DNA of 43,500 bases from a virus (Duplodnaviria; Heunggongvirae; Uroviricota; Caudoviricetes). The translations under genes and the position numbers were made by a program. Positions 3,801-41,948 of this stretch are shown piece after piece (the stretch's first letter is position 1; each line of letters begins with the position of its first letter). Where the stretch lies: IMG/VR virus record IMGVR_UViG_2728369187_000005; one strand, written 5' to 3'. The notes below the pieces were generated by a model. It was not told the DNA's origin and did no database searches. It was given only the letters and a program-made list of their open reading frames with translations.

Positions 3801-4283
3801 AGGTCACCCACCACCACCGATGCTAGATACTGTGAGGTGGTTTTGCCTTTAATGGTGATGTCTTTTTCCGTCACCCAGCCACCATTACGCTGTATCTGAA
3901 CCAGCAGGCGGACTTCCGACGGATTCCGGTCCCCCTTTGAGGTGNNNNNNNNNNNNNNNNNNNNNNNNNNNNNNNNNNNNNNNNNNNNNNNNNNNNNNNN
4001 NNNNNNNNNNNNNNNNNNNNNNNNNNNNNNNNNNNNNNNNNNNNNNNNNNNNNNNNNNNNNNNNNNNNNNNNNNNNNNNNNNNNNNNNNNNNNNNNNNNN
4101 TATATTGGTATTCCCCTCACTGTCCAGCACCGGCGTACTGTTCAGCAGCACGCTTTTTAATCCATCCACCGGACCTTCAACCGGCCCTTCGCTGATGGCA
4201 TCGATCACACTCAGCAGCTGCGTGGACTTCAGGTTGTCCTTCGCTTCGCGCGGGGTATGCCCCTTACTGCTGCCTTTACCCAT
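897..4283 (-). CDS. J: tail tip host-specificity protein J (reading frame interrupted by two assembly gaps)
   Basis: Three ORF segments (897-2003, 2231-4120, 3885-4283) in one orientation; N-terminus [34 protein letters not shown] and internal blocks match lambda J as recalled; total span about 1129 codons. Confidence 0.85.
2263..2332. other. assembly gap (70 N) inside J
   Basis: Run of N. Confidence 0.99.
3945..4100. other. assembly gap (156 N) inside J
   Basis: Run of N. Confidence 0.99.
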
Positions 4284-5702: not shown

Positions 5703-6257
5703 TCAGGCATTTGCTGCATTTATCCTTCGTGATATCGGACNNNNNNNNNNNNNNNNNNNNNNNNNNNNNNNNNNNNNNNNNNNCGTTTCAGTCGGCGTGG
5801 ACAGTACAAAAGAGGCACTGACCGCGCTCAGTTCGCTGCACTGCTCGATGCGCCAGCGGCTGATCACCTCCTGCTCCGGATCGGCTTCGCTGTTTCCGTT
5901 GACGAAGTTCACCGCATCCAGAAAGCGGGCGTAAACCTTACGCCGGACCACCGTTCCGCCGACCAGACTCTGCAGATCTTCCGCCATCCCGGTGATCATG
6001 CCGTGCAGGTTAGAGACCGCCAGTGTCGGACGGGCAGCACTGCCCTTGCCGTTCATCTCAAATCCACTCCCCTGAATGGGATAGGCCTGATACTGCCGAC
6101 TCTGCCAGGTGACAGACTCACCTTTTTCGTTCTGCTCATTACAGAAAAAGTAGCGATCCCCGCCTACCTCGGTCAGGTCGATTTCCCAGAGCACCACGCT
6201 GGCCGACTGCTCCGCACGAATGCATTCATTCAGCGTTTCCTGTTGTATGTCCTGCAT
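5703..6257 (-). CDS. L: tail tip protein L (3' part uncertain because of a 43-N gap; probably continues to about 5630)
   Basis: ORF starting [41 protein letters not shown], lambda-L-like; sits between M and K. Confidence 0.7.
   Translation of the reverse strand: MQDIQQETLNECIRAEQSASVVLWEIDLTEVGGDRYFFCNEQNEKGESVTWQSRQYQAYPIQGSGFEMNGKGSAARPTLAVSNLHGMITGMAEDLQSLVGGTVVRRKVYARFLDAVNFVNGNSEADPEQEVISRWRIEQCSELSAVSASFVLSTPTETXXXXXXXXXXXXXXXPISRRINAANA
5741..5783. other. assembly gap (43 N) inside L
   Basis: Run of N. Confidence 0.99.
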
Positions 6258-27154: not shown

Positions 27155-27441
27155 AAATATCCCTCCTTTCTCCAGATTTCTTGTGTGCGAAAAACACCTT
27201 CTGCATGCATCAGGCGTAATTCTTCTTTGGTGTAATCGCTGGTTTTTACCCGCCCGTCGATTAGATCGTGGCATGAGCTACAGGCAATCGCCGCCTGCAT
27301 ATCGTGTGGTTTTGTCGCTGTTCCGCACGTTCCCGCCAGTCGGTAATGCGCCAGCACAGACGTTTCCGGATCGTGATTGCAGTAGCCAGGAATTCTGACG
27401 GTGCACATCTGCCCCCGCGCCGCTTTACGTAAATCCACCAT
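27151..27441 (-). CDS. DUF1364-type Cys-rich protein (YbcO-like)
   Basis: 96-aa ORF with Cys motifs (CTVRIPGYC ... AIACSSCHD) resembling DLP12 YbcO as recalled. Confidence 0.7.
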   Translation of the reverse strand: MVDLRKAARGQMCTVRIPGYCNHDPETSVLAHYRLAGTCGTATKPHDMQAAIACSSCHDLIDGRVKTSDYTKEELRLMHAEGVFRTQEIWRKEGYL

Positions 27442-28040
27442 TACGCAAACTCCAGCAGCTGCGCGGTCACATTTTCGACTTGTTCCGGAGAGGAAAATTT
27501 ACGGAACAGAATCCAGTTCCACAGCACATTCAGAACAGATTTATAAACCTGCTGAAACTCGGTTTCGTCCATATTCGCAAAAGCGATGGATTTCGCCCGA
27601 CGCCCATGGCTACCATCAGGATAAAGATGCTCGGTGTAAAATCCGGCCTGAATGGTTACCCACTCGCGGAAAGCCTCAAACGACTTTAGCAATGCCGTAT
27701 CCCGGGTTCTGCGTGTCGCAACTGTATTCAGATATTGCTCTGCGGCTTCGCTCAGAGCTGGCGTATGTTCCCGGCCTACTGATTCACATAGGTAATCAAC
27801 GAATCCTGAAACCAGCTTTCGTTCGCGAGGCGTGATCGCCCCACCGACCGGAGTCCAGTAATCGAATCCCAGTTGCAGGAGTTTGAAAAAACGCTTGTGG
27901 AATGCGTAGTTACGCACACGCTTAAAGTCTGCGTGTATCCACTCGCCTATTTTGATTTGATGCAAAAAATCGCAACTCTCCGGCGTCGCCGGGAGAAGTA
28001 GTCCAGAAGAGGTTTGTTTGACCAGTTGTATATGCGCCAT
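27441..28040 (-). CDS. conserved nin-region phage protein (possibly DUF1367-like)
   Basis: 199-aa ORF, first gene of the minus-strand cluster ending in the Q-like gene; ATG overlaps the downstream start region. Confidence 0.6.
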   Translation of the reverse strand: MAHIQLVKQTSSGLLLPATPESCDFLHQIKIGEWIHADFKRVRNYAFHKRFFKLLQLGFDYWTPVGGAITPRERKLVSGFVDYLCESVGREHTPALSEAAEQYLNTVATRRTRDTALLKSFEAFREWVTIQAGFYTEHLYPDGSHGRRAKSIAFANMDETEFQQVYKSVLNVLWNWILFRKFSSPEQVENVTAQLLEFA

Positions 28041-28224
28041 TTCTCAATCTCTCGATGGCGCAGTGCAGCAGATGCCAGTTGTTCAGGCTGACGAATAAAG
28101 TATAAATAAACTGGCTATGGTGTAAAGCTCCACATAACATGAACAAACACTACATATCAAATAGCTGATACAAGGATAGAAATACAACACTTATTATTAA
28201 AAACGATTAGATAAATTACATTTT

Positions 28225-28259
28225 AATGTTATGAAAAAGTTCTTTTTTATCATAACATT
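28225..28259. promoter_or_regulatory. palindrome AATGTTATGA-N15-TCATAACATT (candidate operator) in divergent intergenic region
   Basis: Perfect 10-bp inverted repeat, extendable with one bulge to about 15 bp. Confidence 0.35.
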
Positions 28260-28318
28260 TCAACAAAAGCATTACAGATGCACATCCCGTCATCATCAAT
28301 TATTTAAGGTGGTTAAAC

Positions 28319-28405
28319 ATGGAAAATAACAACTATGCACATCTCGCTCCTTTTTTATCCGTAATCCTTTTCGCTGGCTGTTTTATATGGGCATTATTTT
28401 TATAA
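28319..28405 (+). CDS. small hydrophobic peptide (28 aa)
   Basis: ATG 6 nt after AAGGTGG; MENNNYAHLAPFLSVILFAGCFIWALFL; single predicted TM helix. Confidence 0.35.
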   Translation: MENNNYAHLAPFLSVILFAGCFIWALFL

Positions 28406-28478
28406 AGTAGCCGCATGATTAGTTTCTGGAATCATGTTTCCCACTCAAATCATTAACATTTGATAAGATATATCTAAA

Positions 28479-28540
28479 AGGATGCCTTTACATTATTTGA
28501 TGCGTATATGATTTATTTATATGCACAGTAAAGGCATCCT
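28479..28540. other. long hairpin, perfect 13-bp stem with about 36-nt loop
   Basis: AGGATGCCTTTAC ... GTAAAGGCATCCT; minus-strand version is followed by TTTTAGATAT. Confidence 0.4.
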
Positions 28541-28907
28541 GGAAATAATCAAGATTAATGATATATTGCTTATCTCATCCCCCACTGTCTTTCACCCGGA
28601 AAACATTTATCGTTAAAAATATATCATAAGTAATTAAATTGAAATTTCAGAACACAACTAATGCACACAATAAGATTCAGTAACAGTAATCTATGCGGAC
28701 TATATCGAGATTTTTTAGTTAAACTTTAATAAGTTATTCCTAACACACAGAATGCACAAACTAAAAGTAAAACAAATAGTTATACGAAAAACAACCATAT
28801 TGATTCTATCTTCTCCTCTAATCAACATATCAATTATGTGTTTCATAACAGCTTGACATAACCCTCAAAAAGGTGCATTTATAATGCATGTTTTATGGGA
28901 GGTGGTT

Positions 28908-29249
28908 ATGACACACAAGAGAATTCCTAAAGACTGGGTAATCAAACGCTCAACTCCGTTCTTCACAAAAGAGAACGTACCTTCAGCGTTATTAACACAT
29001 CATAATACAGCAGCAGGTGTTTTTGGACAGTTATGCGTGATGGAAGGTACTGTAACATATTATGGTTTTGCTGATGAGAATGCTACTGAACCGGAGATAA
29101 AAGTAGTCATTAATGCTGGCGCTTTTGCAACAAGCCCACCACAATACTGGCACCGTGTTGAACTAAGCGATGATGCTCAGTTTAATATTAACTTTTGGGT
29201 AGCTCCAGACTTCTCAGGCGAAAAAGTCTATACCGCAAAAAAAGAATAG
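28908..29249 (+). CDS. YeaR-like (DUF1971) cupin-type protein
   Basis: ORF 28884-29249; ATG at 28908 after GGGAGGTGG; motifs RSTPFFTKENVP ... FNINFWVAPDF resemble E. coli YeaR as recalled. Confidence 0.55.
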   Translation: MTHKRIPKDWVIKRSTPFFTKENVPSALLTHHNTAAGVFGQLCVMEGTVTYYGFADENATEPEIKVVINAGAFATSPPQYWHRVELSDDAQFNINFWVAPDFSGEKVYTAKKE

Positions 29250-29410
29250 CCACGCTATAAATATCTTATTAACTAGTCCCGGCGTGGTTCTTTCCCCGCT
29301 GGGTCTTTTACTCAGATTAGTAGTCTACGAATCAGAGCCTCCGTCTGCCAGTTCGGATTCGTACCTCGCAGAGGTCTTTCCTCGTTACCAGTGCCGTCAC
29401 TATGACGGTT

Positions 29411-29483
29411 NNNNNNNNNNNNNNNNNNNNNNNNNNNNNNNNNNNNNNNNNNNNNNNNNNNNNNNNNNNNNNNNNNNNNNNNN
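29411..29483. other. assembly gap (73 N) in non-coding region
   Basis: Run of N. Confidence 0.99.
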
Positions 29484-29989
29484 ACCTTTCGGTCCGTAAG
29501 AGGCTAATCTCTATGTGTCGCATAGATATGGCCTCAGATTAATGTTAAACGTCTTGCAGGACGCGTAATGTTAACTGGGGCTTTTCTCTATCTACCTTTG
29601 GTGTTCATGCCCGAGGCAGATAGCCTCAAGCACCCACAGCAATTCTAACTATCCAATACATCACTGCCAACACTTTAAACTCTTACCCTTTAAAACAAGA
29701 ACAAAATTCAACCAATCAGCATTGGGCGTATACTCATATCCTAGAGAAAACAACTCTTTCTGTACTATTTATATCCATATGATTTATAAGCATTTGCCAC
29801 TTGCCATAGCCGCACAATGACAGTTTGCCATTTGATGTCAATAGATAAAAATGATCGTTTTCAATGAGTTACATACTTGCAAGGCGTTGCACATCAGGCC
29901 CGATTACGTCAGTATCAAAAGATTACAGATGGTGCATTACTGCCACTTCGCCTTAATGTTCCAGAACTCTCCAACTTGAGGAATTTTCA

Positions 29990-30763
29990 ATGACATCCTT
30001 TCAATTATCTTTGATTTCTCGTGAAATTGACGGCGAAATAATACATTTACGTGCCAAAGATGGTTACATAAACGCCACATCAATGTGTAGAACTGCGGGC
30101 AAACTGCTCTCTGATTACACTAGACTCAAAACTACTCAAGAGTTTTTTGACGAATTATCACGCGATATGGGAATTCCCATATCGGAGTTAATTCAATCAT
30201 TTAAAGGTGGAAGACCTGAAAACCAAGGGACATGGGTGCATCCTGACATCGCTATTAATCTAGCGCAGTGGCTATCGCCCAAATTTGCAGTCCAGGTTTC
30301 AAGATGGGTTCGTGAATGGATGTCAGGGGAAAGAACTACAGCAGAAATGCCTGTACATTTAAAACGGTACATGGTTAATCGTAGTAGAATTCCTCACACG
30401 CACTTTTCTATTCTTAATGAACTGACATTCAACTTGGTTGCACCTCTTGAACAAGCAGGGTACACACTCCCAGAAAAAATGGTTCCTGACATTTCACAAG
30501 GAAGAGTATTTTCACAATGGTTAAGAGATAATAGAAACGTAGAACCCAAAACATTCCCTACCTATGACCATGAATATCCCGATGGTCGCGTATACCCTGC
30601 AAGGCTGTACCCAAATGAATATTTAGCAGATTTCAAAGAACATTTTAACAATATTTGGTTGCCGCAATATGCCCCGAAATACTTCGCTGACCGGGACAAA
30701 AAGGCTCTCGCCTTGATTGAAAAAATTATGCTACCTAACCTCGATGGCAATGAACAGTTCTAA
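29990..30763 (+). CDS. KilA-N domain protein
   Basis: 257-aa ORF; N-terminal block IHLRAKDGYINATSMCRTAGKLLSDYTRLKTTQEF ... WVHPDIAINLAQWLSPKFAVQVSRWV typical of KilA-N; GAGGAA upstream of ATG. Confidence 0.8.
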   Translation: MTSFQLSLISREIDGEIIHLRAKDGYINATSMCRTAGKLLSDYTRLKTTQEFFDELSRDMGIPISELIQSFKGGRPENQGTWVHPDIAINLAQWLSPKFAVQVSRWVREWMSGERTTAEMPVHLKRYMVNRSRIPHTHFSILNELTFNLVAPLEQAGYTLPEKMVPDISQGRVFSQWLRDNRNVEPKTFPTYDHEYPDGRVYPARLYPNEYLADFKEHFNNIWLPQYAPKYFADRDKKALALIEKIMLPNLDGNEQF

Positions 30764-30771
30764 ATGATTAG

Positions 30772-30798
30772 CCAGCCCCATAAGGGCTGGTTATTTAG
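30772..30798 (+). terminator. intrinsic terminator after the KilA-N gene
   Basis: CCAGCCC-cataa-GGGCTGG followed by TTATTTAGTATTAT. Confidence 0.5.
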
Positions 30799-30883
30799 TA
30801 TTATCAACCCCAGCGGCAAATCGAATACACCACCAGCGCCACCGCCATCGCAATTCCTACCGTTGTGAATGCTTCAGGCCAGG

Positions 30884-41572: not shown

Positions 41573-41767
41573 ATGAGATATGACAATGTTAAACCATGTC
41601 CATTTTGTGGTTGTCCATCAGTAACGGTGAAAGTCATTTCAGGATATTACCGAGCGAAGTGTAACGGATGCGAATCCCGAACCGGTTATGGTGGAAGTGA
41701 AAAAGAAGCACTCGAAAGATGGAATAAACGAACCACTGGAAATAATAACGGAGGTGTTCATGTATAA
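41573..41767 (+). CDS. ralR: restriction alleviation protein / type I toxin RalR (Lar)
   Basis: MRYDNVKPCPFCGCPSVTVKVISGYYRAKCNGCESRTGYGGSEKEALERWNKRTTGNNNGGVHV, 64 aa. Confidence 0.8.
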   Translation: MRYDNVKPCPFCGCPSVTVKVISGYYRAKCNGCESRTGYGGSEKEALERWNKRTTGNNNGGVHV

Positions 41768-41948
41768 AATTACCGCCACTATTGAAAAGGAAGGTGGCAC
41801 TCCTACTAACTGGACAAGATATTCAAAATCTAAACTAACGAAATCAGAATGCGAAAAAATGCTCTCAGGTAAAAAAGAAGCAGGCGTTTCCAGAGAGCAG
41901 AAAGTAAAACTGATAAATTTTAATTGCGAGAAACTTCAGTCCTCGTGA
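41760..41948 (+). CDS. ydaC: YdaC-like small protein
   Basis: Start MYKITATIEKEGGTPTNWTRYSK at 41760, overlapping the ralR stop. Confidence 0.65.
   Translation: MYKITATIEKEGGTPTNWTRYSKSKLTKSECEKMLSGKKEAGVSREQKVKLINFNCEKLQSS

Follow-up and report, generated by a model that had tools for sequence, protein, structure and literature searches.

Our analysis implies that the 28-codon open reading frame (ORF) at positions 28319-28405 is a real micro-gene carried on a moron-like cassette, and that its product would be a small inner-membrane protein and not a classical antisense-controlled toxin; we hold this reading with somewhat better than even confidence. Judged from sequence comparison, the ORF is best read as a new family restricted to Escherichia and Shigella, while its kind, the prophage-encoded micro-membrane protein, is a familiar one. 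The window, i.e. the whole stretch of 43,500 nucleotides that was analyzed, is a Rac-type lambdoid prophage of E. coli. The genes trkG, ydaV and ydaT are found in the window neighborhood, and the Rac-prophage identity is confirmed by a match to the RalA antitoxin sRNA of the RalR/RalA system at 41766-41944 on the minus strand (225 bits). RalA is the third toxin-antitoxin-type element in the window.

The ORF and the elements that surround it are the following:

27441-28040, minus strand: DUF1367 gene, the left neighbor, divergent from the ORF
28190-28224, plus strand: invariant AT-rich block, CTTATTATTAAAA..G.TTA...AAATT..ATTTT, 86-97% identity between lineages
28225-28259, strand unassigned: conserved hairpin or imperfect palindrome, AATGTTATGAAAAAG..CTTTTTTATCATAACATT, 63-69% identity between lineages
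28260-28305, plus strand: poorly conserved leader, 44-65% identity and 4-7 gap columns between lineages
28306-28312, plus strand: Shine-Dalgarno sequence AAGGTGG, 6 nt before the ATG
28319-28405, plus strand: the 28-codon ORF, encoding MENNNYAHLAPFLSVILFAGCFIWALFL; its TAA is followed by an A common to all lineages
28414-28439, plus strand: weak hairpin CATGATT-N9-AATCATG + TTT, a candidate terminator, window lineage only
28479-28540: long hairpin, arms 28479-28491 and 28528-28540 (13 nt, 100% complementary), 36-nt loop
28908-29249, plus strand: DUF1971 gene, the right neighbor, about 500 nt from the ORF
about 29230-29640, minus strand: hok/sok locus (Rfam sok, 83.9 bits, at 29486-29635)
about 29332-29457, minus strand: hok coding sequence, partly N-masked; a 41-aa Hok/Gef protein in the identical RefSeq strain

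The original prediction had placed a hydrophobic micro-gene here, and its description of the site is borne out. Its coordinates (ATG at 28319, TAA at 28403-28405) and peptide sequence were exact, and the Shine-Dalgarno sequence is indeed separated from the ATG by a 6-nt spacer, TTAAAC. The gap between the DUF1367 gene and the DUF1971 gene is divergent and AT-rich as claimed, with 25-33% GC over 28100-28900 versus 48-54% in the nin genes. Both inverted repeats, at 28225-28259 and 28479-28540, are real and far more stable than shuffled sequences. The micro-gene reading itself is supported, since the ORF is conserved, has a ribosome-binding site and encodes essentially one predicted transmembrane helix. 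It had also been expected that the gene would be missing from annotations, and no feature is annotated beneath the cassette match among the RefSeq matches listed or in the related phage records.

The peptide has a polar decapeptide at its N-terminus, and a hydrophobic helix of 18 residues (residues 11-28, mean hydropathy 2.33) takes up the rest as far as the C-terminus; it thus belongs with the small (<60 aa) hydrophobic peptides with one predicted helix. On both strands of the 43.5-kb window, 28319-28405 is the sole ATG-started ORF of 20-50 aa that has a 16-residue hydropathy window above 2.4. Its distinction from a random ORF comes chiefly from the comparison of loci given below. The residues M1 E2 N3 N4, H8, L13, S14, I16-F18, C21, W24-A25 and F27-L28 are invariant, P11 is kept in 205 of 205 loci and F12 in all but one locus; such a pattern suggests a specific contact of the peptide and not mere greasiness. 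Searches for peptide families gave no Pfam match at E <= 10 and none in PADLOC, while NCBIfam and PHROGs returned only weak signal-peptide-like matches; a PDB profile search with the peptide gave no matches. Four peptide variants were absent from a collection of 15 billion proteins (exact look-up) and were not found by full-text search in the searchable literature. The strings searched in the supplement of the O157:H7 Sakai small-gene study match only one unrelated ORF that starts with MENNN (PMC5597208), and the locus is covered neither by the Pas sRNA preprint (10.64898/2026.05.13.724894) nor by the hokW-sokW paper (PMC8621323).

We investigated the coding capacity of the ORF with a sample of 205 loci: 80 came from IMG/VR via a peptide pattern, 120 were selected via an upstream DNA motif outside the ORF, and the remainder consists of RefSeq examples plus Shigella flexneri and Escherichia ruysiae. 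In 205 of 205 loci the frame is unbroken and has a length of exactly 28 codons; the loci comprise 20 different versions at the DNA level and 16 at the peptide level. Among the motif-selected loci it is intact in 118 of 120 and the remaining two are interrupted by contig ends (118/118 usable). The variable columns are distributed over codon positions 1/2/3 as 6/10/17 (of 27 each; Fisher p = 0.008; 20 versions), the parsimony changes as 7/14/24, and the between-lineage pN/pS of the ORF is 0.10-0.47. All remaining five frames have stops in 7-20 of the 20 versions. Between lineages the ORF is 79-84% identical with zero gaps in its 87 nt, whereas the leader shows the much lower identity and the gap columns listed above. 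Across lineages the start and stop codons are retained, as is the Shine-Dalgarno spacing, and the ribosome-binding site is mostly kept. Even in degraded prophage remnants (L004 type) the ORF is still intact; 328 genomes, L004 included, fall in the 90-95% identity band. A further class of E. coli matches, with about 72% DNA identity, covers 28200-28406 only, thus the homology ends at the stop codon.

One would argue that the ORF is nevertheless fortuitous and that the cassette is a non-coding border element, in which the frame survives as the lineages are few and young. Such an element could be a promoter-operator, an insulator or terminator shielding the Q operon from cargo read-through, or a recombination anchor. 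In the comparison of segments between lineages the AT-rich block (86-97%) and the covarying hairpin are the best-conserved parts and outrank the ORF, therefore a part of the conservation of the cassette does not come from coding. A terminator-like hairpin on the minus strand lies just outside the ORF end in every context, and the final 18 nt of the ORF are nearly invariant, third positions included. Under neutrality the chance of the frame staying open is about 0.10, which is weakly improbable. However, a non-coding element does not account for the codon-position periodicity or for a pN/pS well below 1, nor for 0 indels in 87 nt when the adjacent 45-nt leader has several, and the conserved ATG, TAA and Shine-Dalgarno spacing together with the closure of every other frame in many variants also speak against it. 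Essentially three or four lineages, which recombine, provide the diversity; with about 45 substitutions as the basis of the statistics, and with the open-frame probability given above, the coding case is good but not conclusive. We consider the fortuitous frame, with its promoter-operator, insulator and anchor variants taken jointly, unlikely, and regard the ORF as quite probably a translated gene under purifying selection.

The unit common to all lineages is about 220 bp long and corresponds to about 28190-28407 of the window. Its left end and most conserved element is the AT-rich block, the pattern of which can be written with a fuller right end as CTTATTATTAAAA..G.TTA...AAATT..ATTTTAATGTTATG; the homology of the translocated lineages L016 and L046 starts at this block or just left of it. 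A consensus promoter scan gave nothing that reached the threshold within the block. By eye, weak sigma-70 matches can be discerned (TTATTA-17-TACATT or TTAGAT-17-TGnTATGAA), which are mutually incompatible and neither of which is preferable; the -10 element would be at 28217-28222 or at 28230-28235. The AT-rich block is hence put forward as no more than a candidate promoter or protein-binding region of the small gene.

The hairpin that follows has 14-nt arms (28225-28238 and 28246-28259) with 93% complementarity and is more stable than shuffled sequences on both strands (z -4.4 on the plus strand, -3.2 on the minus strand). Its outer 8-bp stem is maintained via G-C to G-U and U-A to U-G changes, while the inner stem differs in sequence and keeps its complementarity in three lineages. 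The hairpin is present in 20 of 20 variants. An assignment to the plus strand was apparent from the wobble pairs in 7 sequences and was given up when the folding of the 20 variants on both strands showed no consistent preference; the strand is left unassigned because the favored one varies among the variants. No conserved structure was found in the leader at 28260-28305. Downstream of it, TAAGGTG is kept in most lineages and is weakened to AAAGTGAG or AAAGCGAG in the L047/L049 subgroup; the weakened Shine-Dalgarno sequence occurs in the largest subgroup.

At the right end of the cassette, unrelated flanks start directly past the TAA and its following A. Four flank types occur there: the hok 3' end, the type of the window, the IetAS type and a tail-fiber-proximal type. 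In each of them a hairpin is found 10-50 nt past the stop codon, and only in the IetAS type (L090) does it look clean, being a GC-rich bidirectional terminator. In the lineage of the window the hairpin at 28414-28439 may serve as the terminator of the small gene.

This arrangement of the right end bears on the possibility that the ORF is what remains of a truncated gene for a lipoprotein or a secreted protein, namely its signal peptide. Residues 9-22 match Lp6.6 weakly in the clade-B variant (E = 0.027) and an Rz-like spanin PHROG weakly in the window variant (E = 0.009), and the window variant contains a lipobox-like FAGC. The lipobox, however, is not conserved, as FAGC is confined to the window variant and the others have VLCC, FACC or VFCC; the N-terminus, MENN(K/N), lacks a positively charged n-region. 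Moreover, lineages with four unrelated downstream flanks have the same TAA + A, thus the stop codon belongs to the cassette and is not a truncation junction. We therefore regard a leftover signal peptide as very improbable.

Matches to the segment 28200-28560 are found in 1175 of 5426 complete E. coli genomes, i.e. about a fifth of them, and among 185,579 species (one genome per species) the only carriers are Shigella flexneri and E. ruysiae. Examples of E. coli with a match are W / KO11FL (NC_017660.1, 3369710-3369918) and strain 50579417 (NZ_CP033884.1, 4503111-4503961, minus strand). The cassette is found in four upstream and four unrelated downstream contexts and at two different prophage positions. 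The copies in L046 and L197 adjoin tail-fiber genes at a prophage end, and L016 differs in its left flank. L046 (positions 779-862) and L197 (IMGVR_UViG_2547132270_000010) constitute the third cassette lineage, with the peptide MENNKSAHYAPFLSIILFVCCFIWALFL; this copy is near tail-fiber and tail-fiber-assembly genes, close to a contig end, and both of its flanks are unrelated to those of the nin-region copies. Upstream of the DUF1367 homologs in Gifsy-2, Klebsiella phage RAH1 and phage PHB10 the cassette is absent, and a synteny search at the same places found no comparable small hydrophobic ORF. The cassette is thus a discrete insert of distinct base composition that is present or absent among relatives and occurs in more than one context. 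Its candidate regulatory signals are weak sub-threshold sigma-70 matches on the one side and hairpins past the stop codon, in all contexts, on the other. With four unrelated flanks and two prophage positions the cassette behaves like a moron, and the comparison of the loci points to a small, self-contained and compositionally foreign unit of the kind known from phages. The ORF is absent from K-12 and BL21(DE3), whose Rac copies are deleted across the region, therefore the usual laboratory strains cannot reveal it. The Rac prophage of K-12 MG1655 (NC_000913.3, 1411899-1434958) has ydaW joined to rzpR and that of BL21(DE3) (NC_012971.2, 1397168-1410000) has ydaF/ydaG joined to essD; the nin region and the hotspot are missing from both.

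Within the Rac-type prophage the early-right transcription runs on the minus strand through the replication genes, DUF1627 (ydaW-like), DUF977, the cargo, DUF1367, DUF1364, the DUF1133 Q-type antiterminator and lysis. The small ORF is on the plus strand, opposite to the early-right and nin transcription and divergent from the NinB-like (DUF1367)-DUF1364-Q operon. Relatives of the DUF1367 protein with 25-37% identity occur in phages of Vibrio and Pseudomonas, where their annotation is NinB/Orf recombination mediator, and by virtue of these relatives the DUF1367 protein of this prophage probably acts in the place of NinB. Of the sites in the region, TTTACA-16-TATACT (10/12) at 28126-28099 on the minus strand looks most like a promoter. 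It is found about 60 nt upstream of the DUF1367 start, where the two main lineages have conserved sequence, and may allow the NinB-like-Q operon to be transcribed from a promoter of its own that is sited past the terminators of the cargo.

A variable cargo and defense hotspot extends over about 28410-30800, between the DUF977/DUF1627 genes and the cassette, and the cassette forms the fixed right-hand border of this hotspot in Rac/Qin-like prophages. We looked at the hotspot in the window and in L003, L005, L090, L109, L155 and L209. Across these loci the cargo includes IetA + IetS (PADLOC 474 and 1001 bits), an AbiLi/AbiLii-like pair, an Hp2/Hp3 pair, a NACHT protein, a DUF262 protein with YfgM, and hok/sok, while the window's own cargo consists of DUF1971, hok/sok and a KilA-N gene. 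A search of 27800-30100 against Rfam at E <= 5 returned only sok and noise. The window has N runs at 2263-2332, 3945-4100, 5741-5783 and 29411-29483, the last of which masks the 5' part of hok. The hok gene is convergent with the ORF, about 100-150 nt from its stop codon, in 111 of 207 loci and is absent within 3 kb in 74.

On the plus strand of the window lineage the ORF is succeeded by a stable hairpin and then by the DUF1971 gene, and the ORF could in that case be a leader peptide (uORF) that attenuates DUF1971 via translation coupling, with the hairpin at 28479-28540 as the attenuator. However, the T-run of this hairpin is on the minus strand only, and DUF1971 is about 500 nt away from the ORF. 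An attenuator would be expected to have a co-directional downstream gene in all members, whereas in most loci the downstream gene is convergent (hok, IetS or NACHT); the most abundant lineage has no downstream gene on the plus strand, and there the ORF is immediately followed by the 3' end of hok in convergent orientation, by IetAS or by different cargo. A role as leader peptide is hence hardly to be expected.

The original prediction had also compared the peptide with type I toxins (the Ibs, Sho, TisB and Ldr classes) and had proposed that the long hairpin at 28479-28540 could belong to an antisense or adjacent small RNA. By this explanation the ORF would encode a membrane-depolarizing peptide whose translation is restrained by a small RNA, either antisense or complementary in part, and which acts in prophage maintenance or abortive infection like the neighboring hok/sok. 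The E. coli type I toxins ShoB and Ibs are 18-26 aa long, with a short polar N-terminus followed by hydrophobic sequence to the C-terminus, and the peptide resembles them in size and shape. The prophage location beside hok/sok and defense cargo, the frequent convergence with hok at about 100-150 nt noted above and the structured element conserved in the presumed 5' leader also favor a toxin.

The class assignment, however, found no support, as no toxin family gave a credible match in Pfam, NCBIfam, PHROGs or PADLOC even at E <= 10. The hairpin part of the proposal fared no better: the hairpin is confined to the window lineage, lies outside the cassette and shows no above-chance complementarity to the ORF mRNA. 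It is stable by itself (z -4.9 to -6.1 versus shuffles) and is followed by TTTT on the minus strand only. Upstream of it, at 28650-28623 on the minus strand, there is a promoter-like CTGAAA-16-TATGAT; the two elements could define a minus-strand RNA of about 140 nt, or the hairpin could simply be a terminator. The putative RNA would end 70 nt short of the ORF, and the candidate minus-strand RNA 28620-28475 pairs with the ORF mRNA no better than shuffled sequences do (47 of 300 were as good).

A partner elsewhere was sought as well. Trans-type partners such as IstR-1, OhsC and OrzO share 18-21 nt with their targets, whereas no direct or inverted match of at least 13 nt to 28190-28450 exists anywhere in the 43.5-kb window. 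The consensus scan gave no minus-strand promoter inside the ORF or just past it, and the region past the stop codon, where the promoter of a cis-antisense RNA would be sited, is unrelated in the four contexts. Thus an RNA antitoxin, whether of the cis-antisense or of the 18-21 nt divergent type, was not found in the form of a complementary repeat, a consensus-type minus-strand promoter or an above-chance duplex, although a weak antisense promoter that departs from the consensus may be present. Furthermore, no conserved structure occludes the strong ribosome-binding site, and the cassette remains intact in the 74 loci without hok. Since neither a toxin family nor a partner RNA was found, we do not file the ORF as a type I toxin, and we consider a toxin-like action of this type doubtful.

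Comparison with known systems helps to place the micro-gene and its moron-like cassette. With ShoB and Ibs it shares the very small size, the polar N-terminus followed by hydrophobic sequence, the AT-rich intergenic site and the structured leader, but it has no sequence similarity or family match to them, no partner RNA resembling OhsC or Sib was found, and its ribosome-binding site is exposed. Hok/Gef likewise encodes a small membrane peptide and shares the hotspot, where it is often convergent within about 150 nt; in contrast to the 28-aa peptide, Hok has 41-52 aa and ends in a polar domain, and it comes with a mok leader and with Sok as its antisense RNA. The two peptides are not similar in sequence. 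YnaM and YnfT from the Rac and Qin prophages of K-12 are also prophage-encoded, shorter than 40 aa and made of a single hydrophobic helix, yet the peptide is unrelated in sequence to YnaM, has no NCBIfam match and is encoded at another prophage position.

The HK97 gp15 gene is a phage moron for a superinfection-exclusion membrane protein (Juhala et al. 2000; Cumby et al. 2012), and like morons of this type the cassette is an autonomous insert between conserved phage genes, runs against the surrounding operon and differs in base composition. It is likewise present or absent among related phages, occupies more than one genomic position and has a product that is predicted to be membrane-targeted. 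It differs from them in that the product has only 28 aa and one helix and in that its putative promoter and terminator are below consensus grade.

If the reading as a micro-gene for an inner-membrane protein is right, the cassette could work as follows. The gene would be transcribed in the lysogen from the cassette's own weak promoter in the AT-rich block, and this promoter might be silenced by H-NS, a speculation that comes from the base composition. Translation would start from the strong ribosome-binding site. The 18-residue C-terminal helix (residues 11-28, APFLSVILF..C..WALFL) would then anchor the peptide in the inner membrane and leave about 10 polar residues (MENNxxxH) on one membrane face. 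There the peptide might modulate a membrane process or protein, exclude other phages or be mildly toxic.

A more specific proposal is that the peptide is an Escherichia-restricted membrane effector and functionally a part of the hotspot that it borders. It could be a minimal superinfection-exclusion or abortive-infection peptide, or else an unorthodoxly controlled toxin, in which convergent or antisense read-through from the early-right or from the hok or cargo transcripts takes the place of a dedicated small RNA. We regard the proposal, its two forms taken jointly, as a rather unlikely one. If control by read-through were true, the expression of the ORF would report the transcriptional state of the prophage.

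The cassette provides a fixed and easily recognized landmark for the right-hand border of a defense hotspot in lambdoid prophages, and it could be used for mining further hotspot cargo of the IetAS, AbiL-like, NACHT and hok/sok type. If the ORF is translated, it would add a new family to the short list of prophage micro-proteins that act at the membrane.
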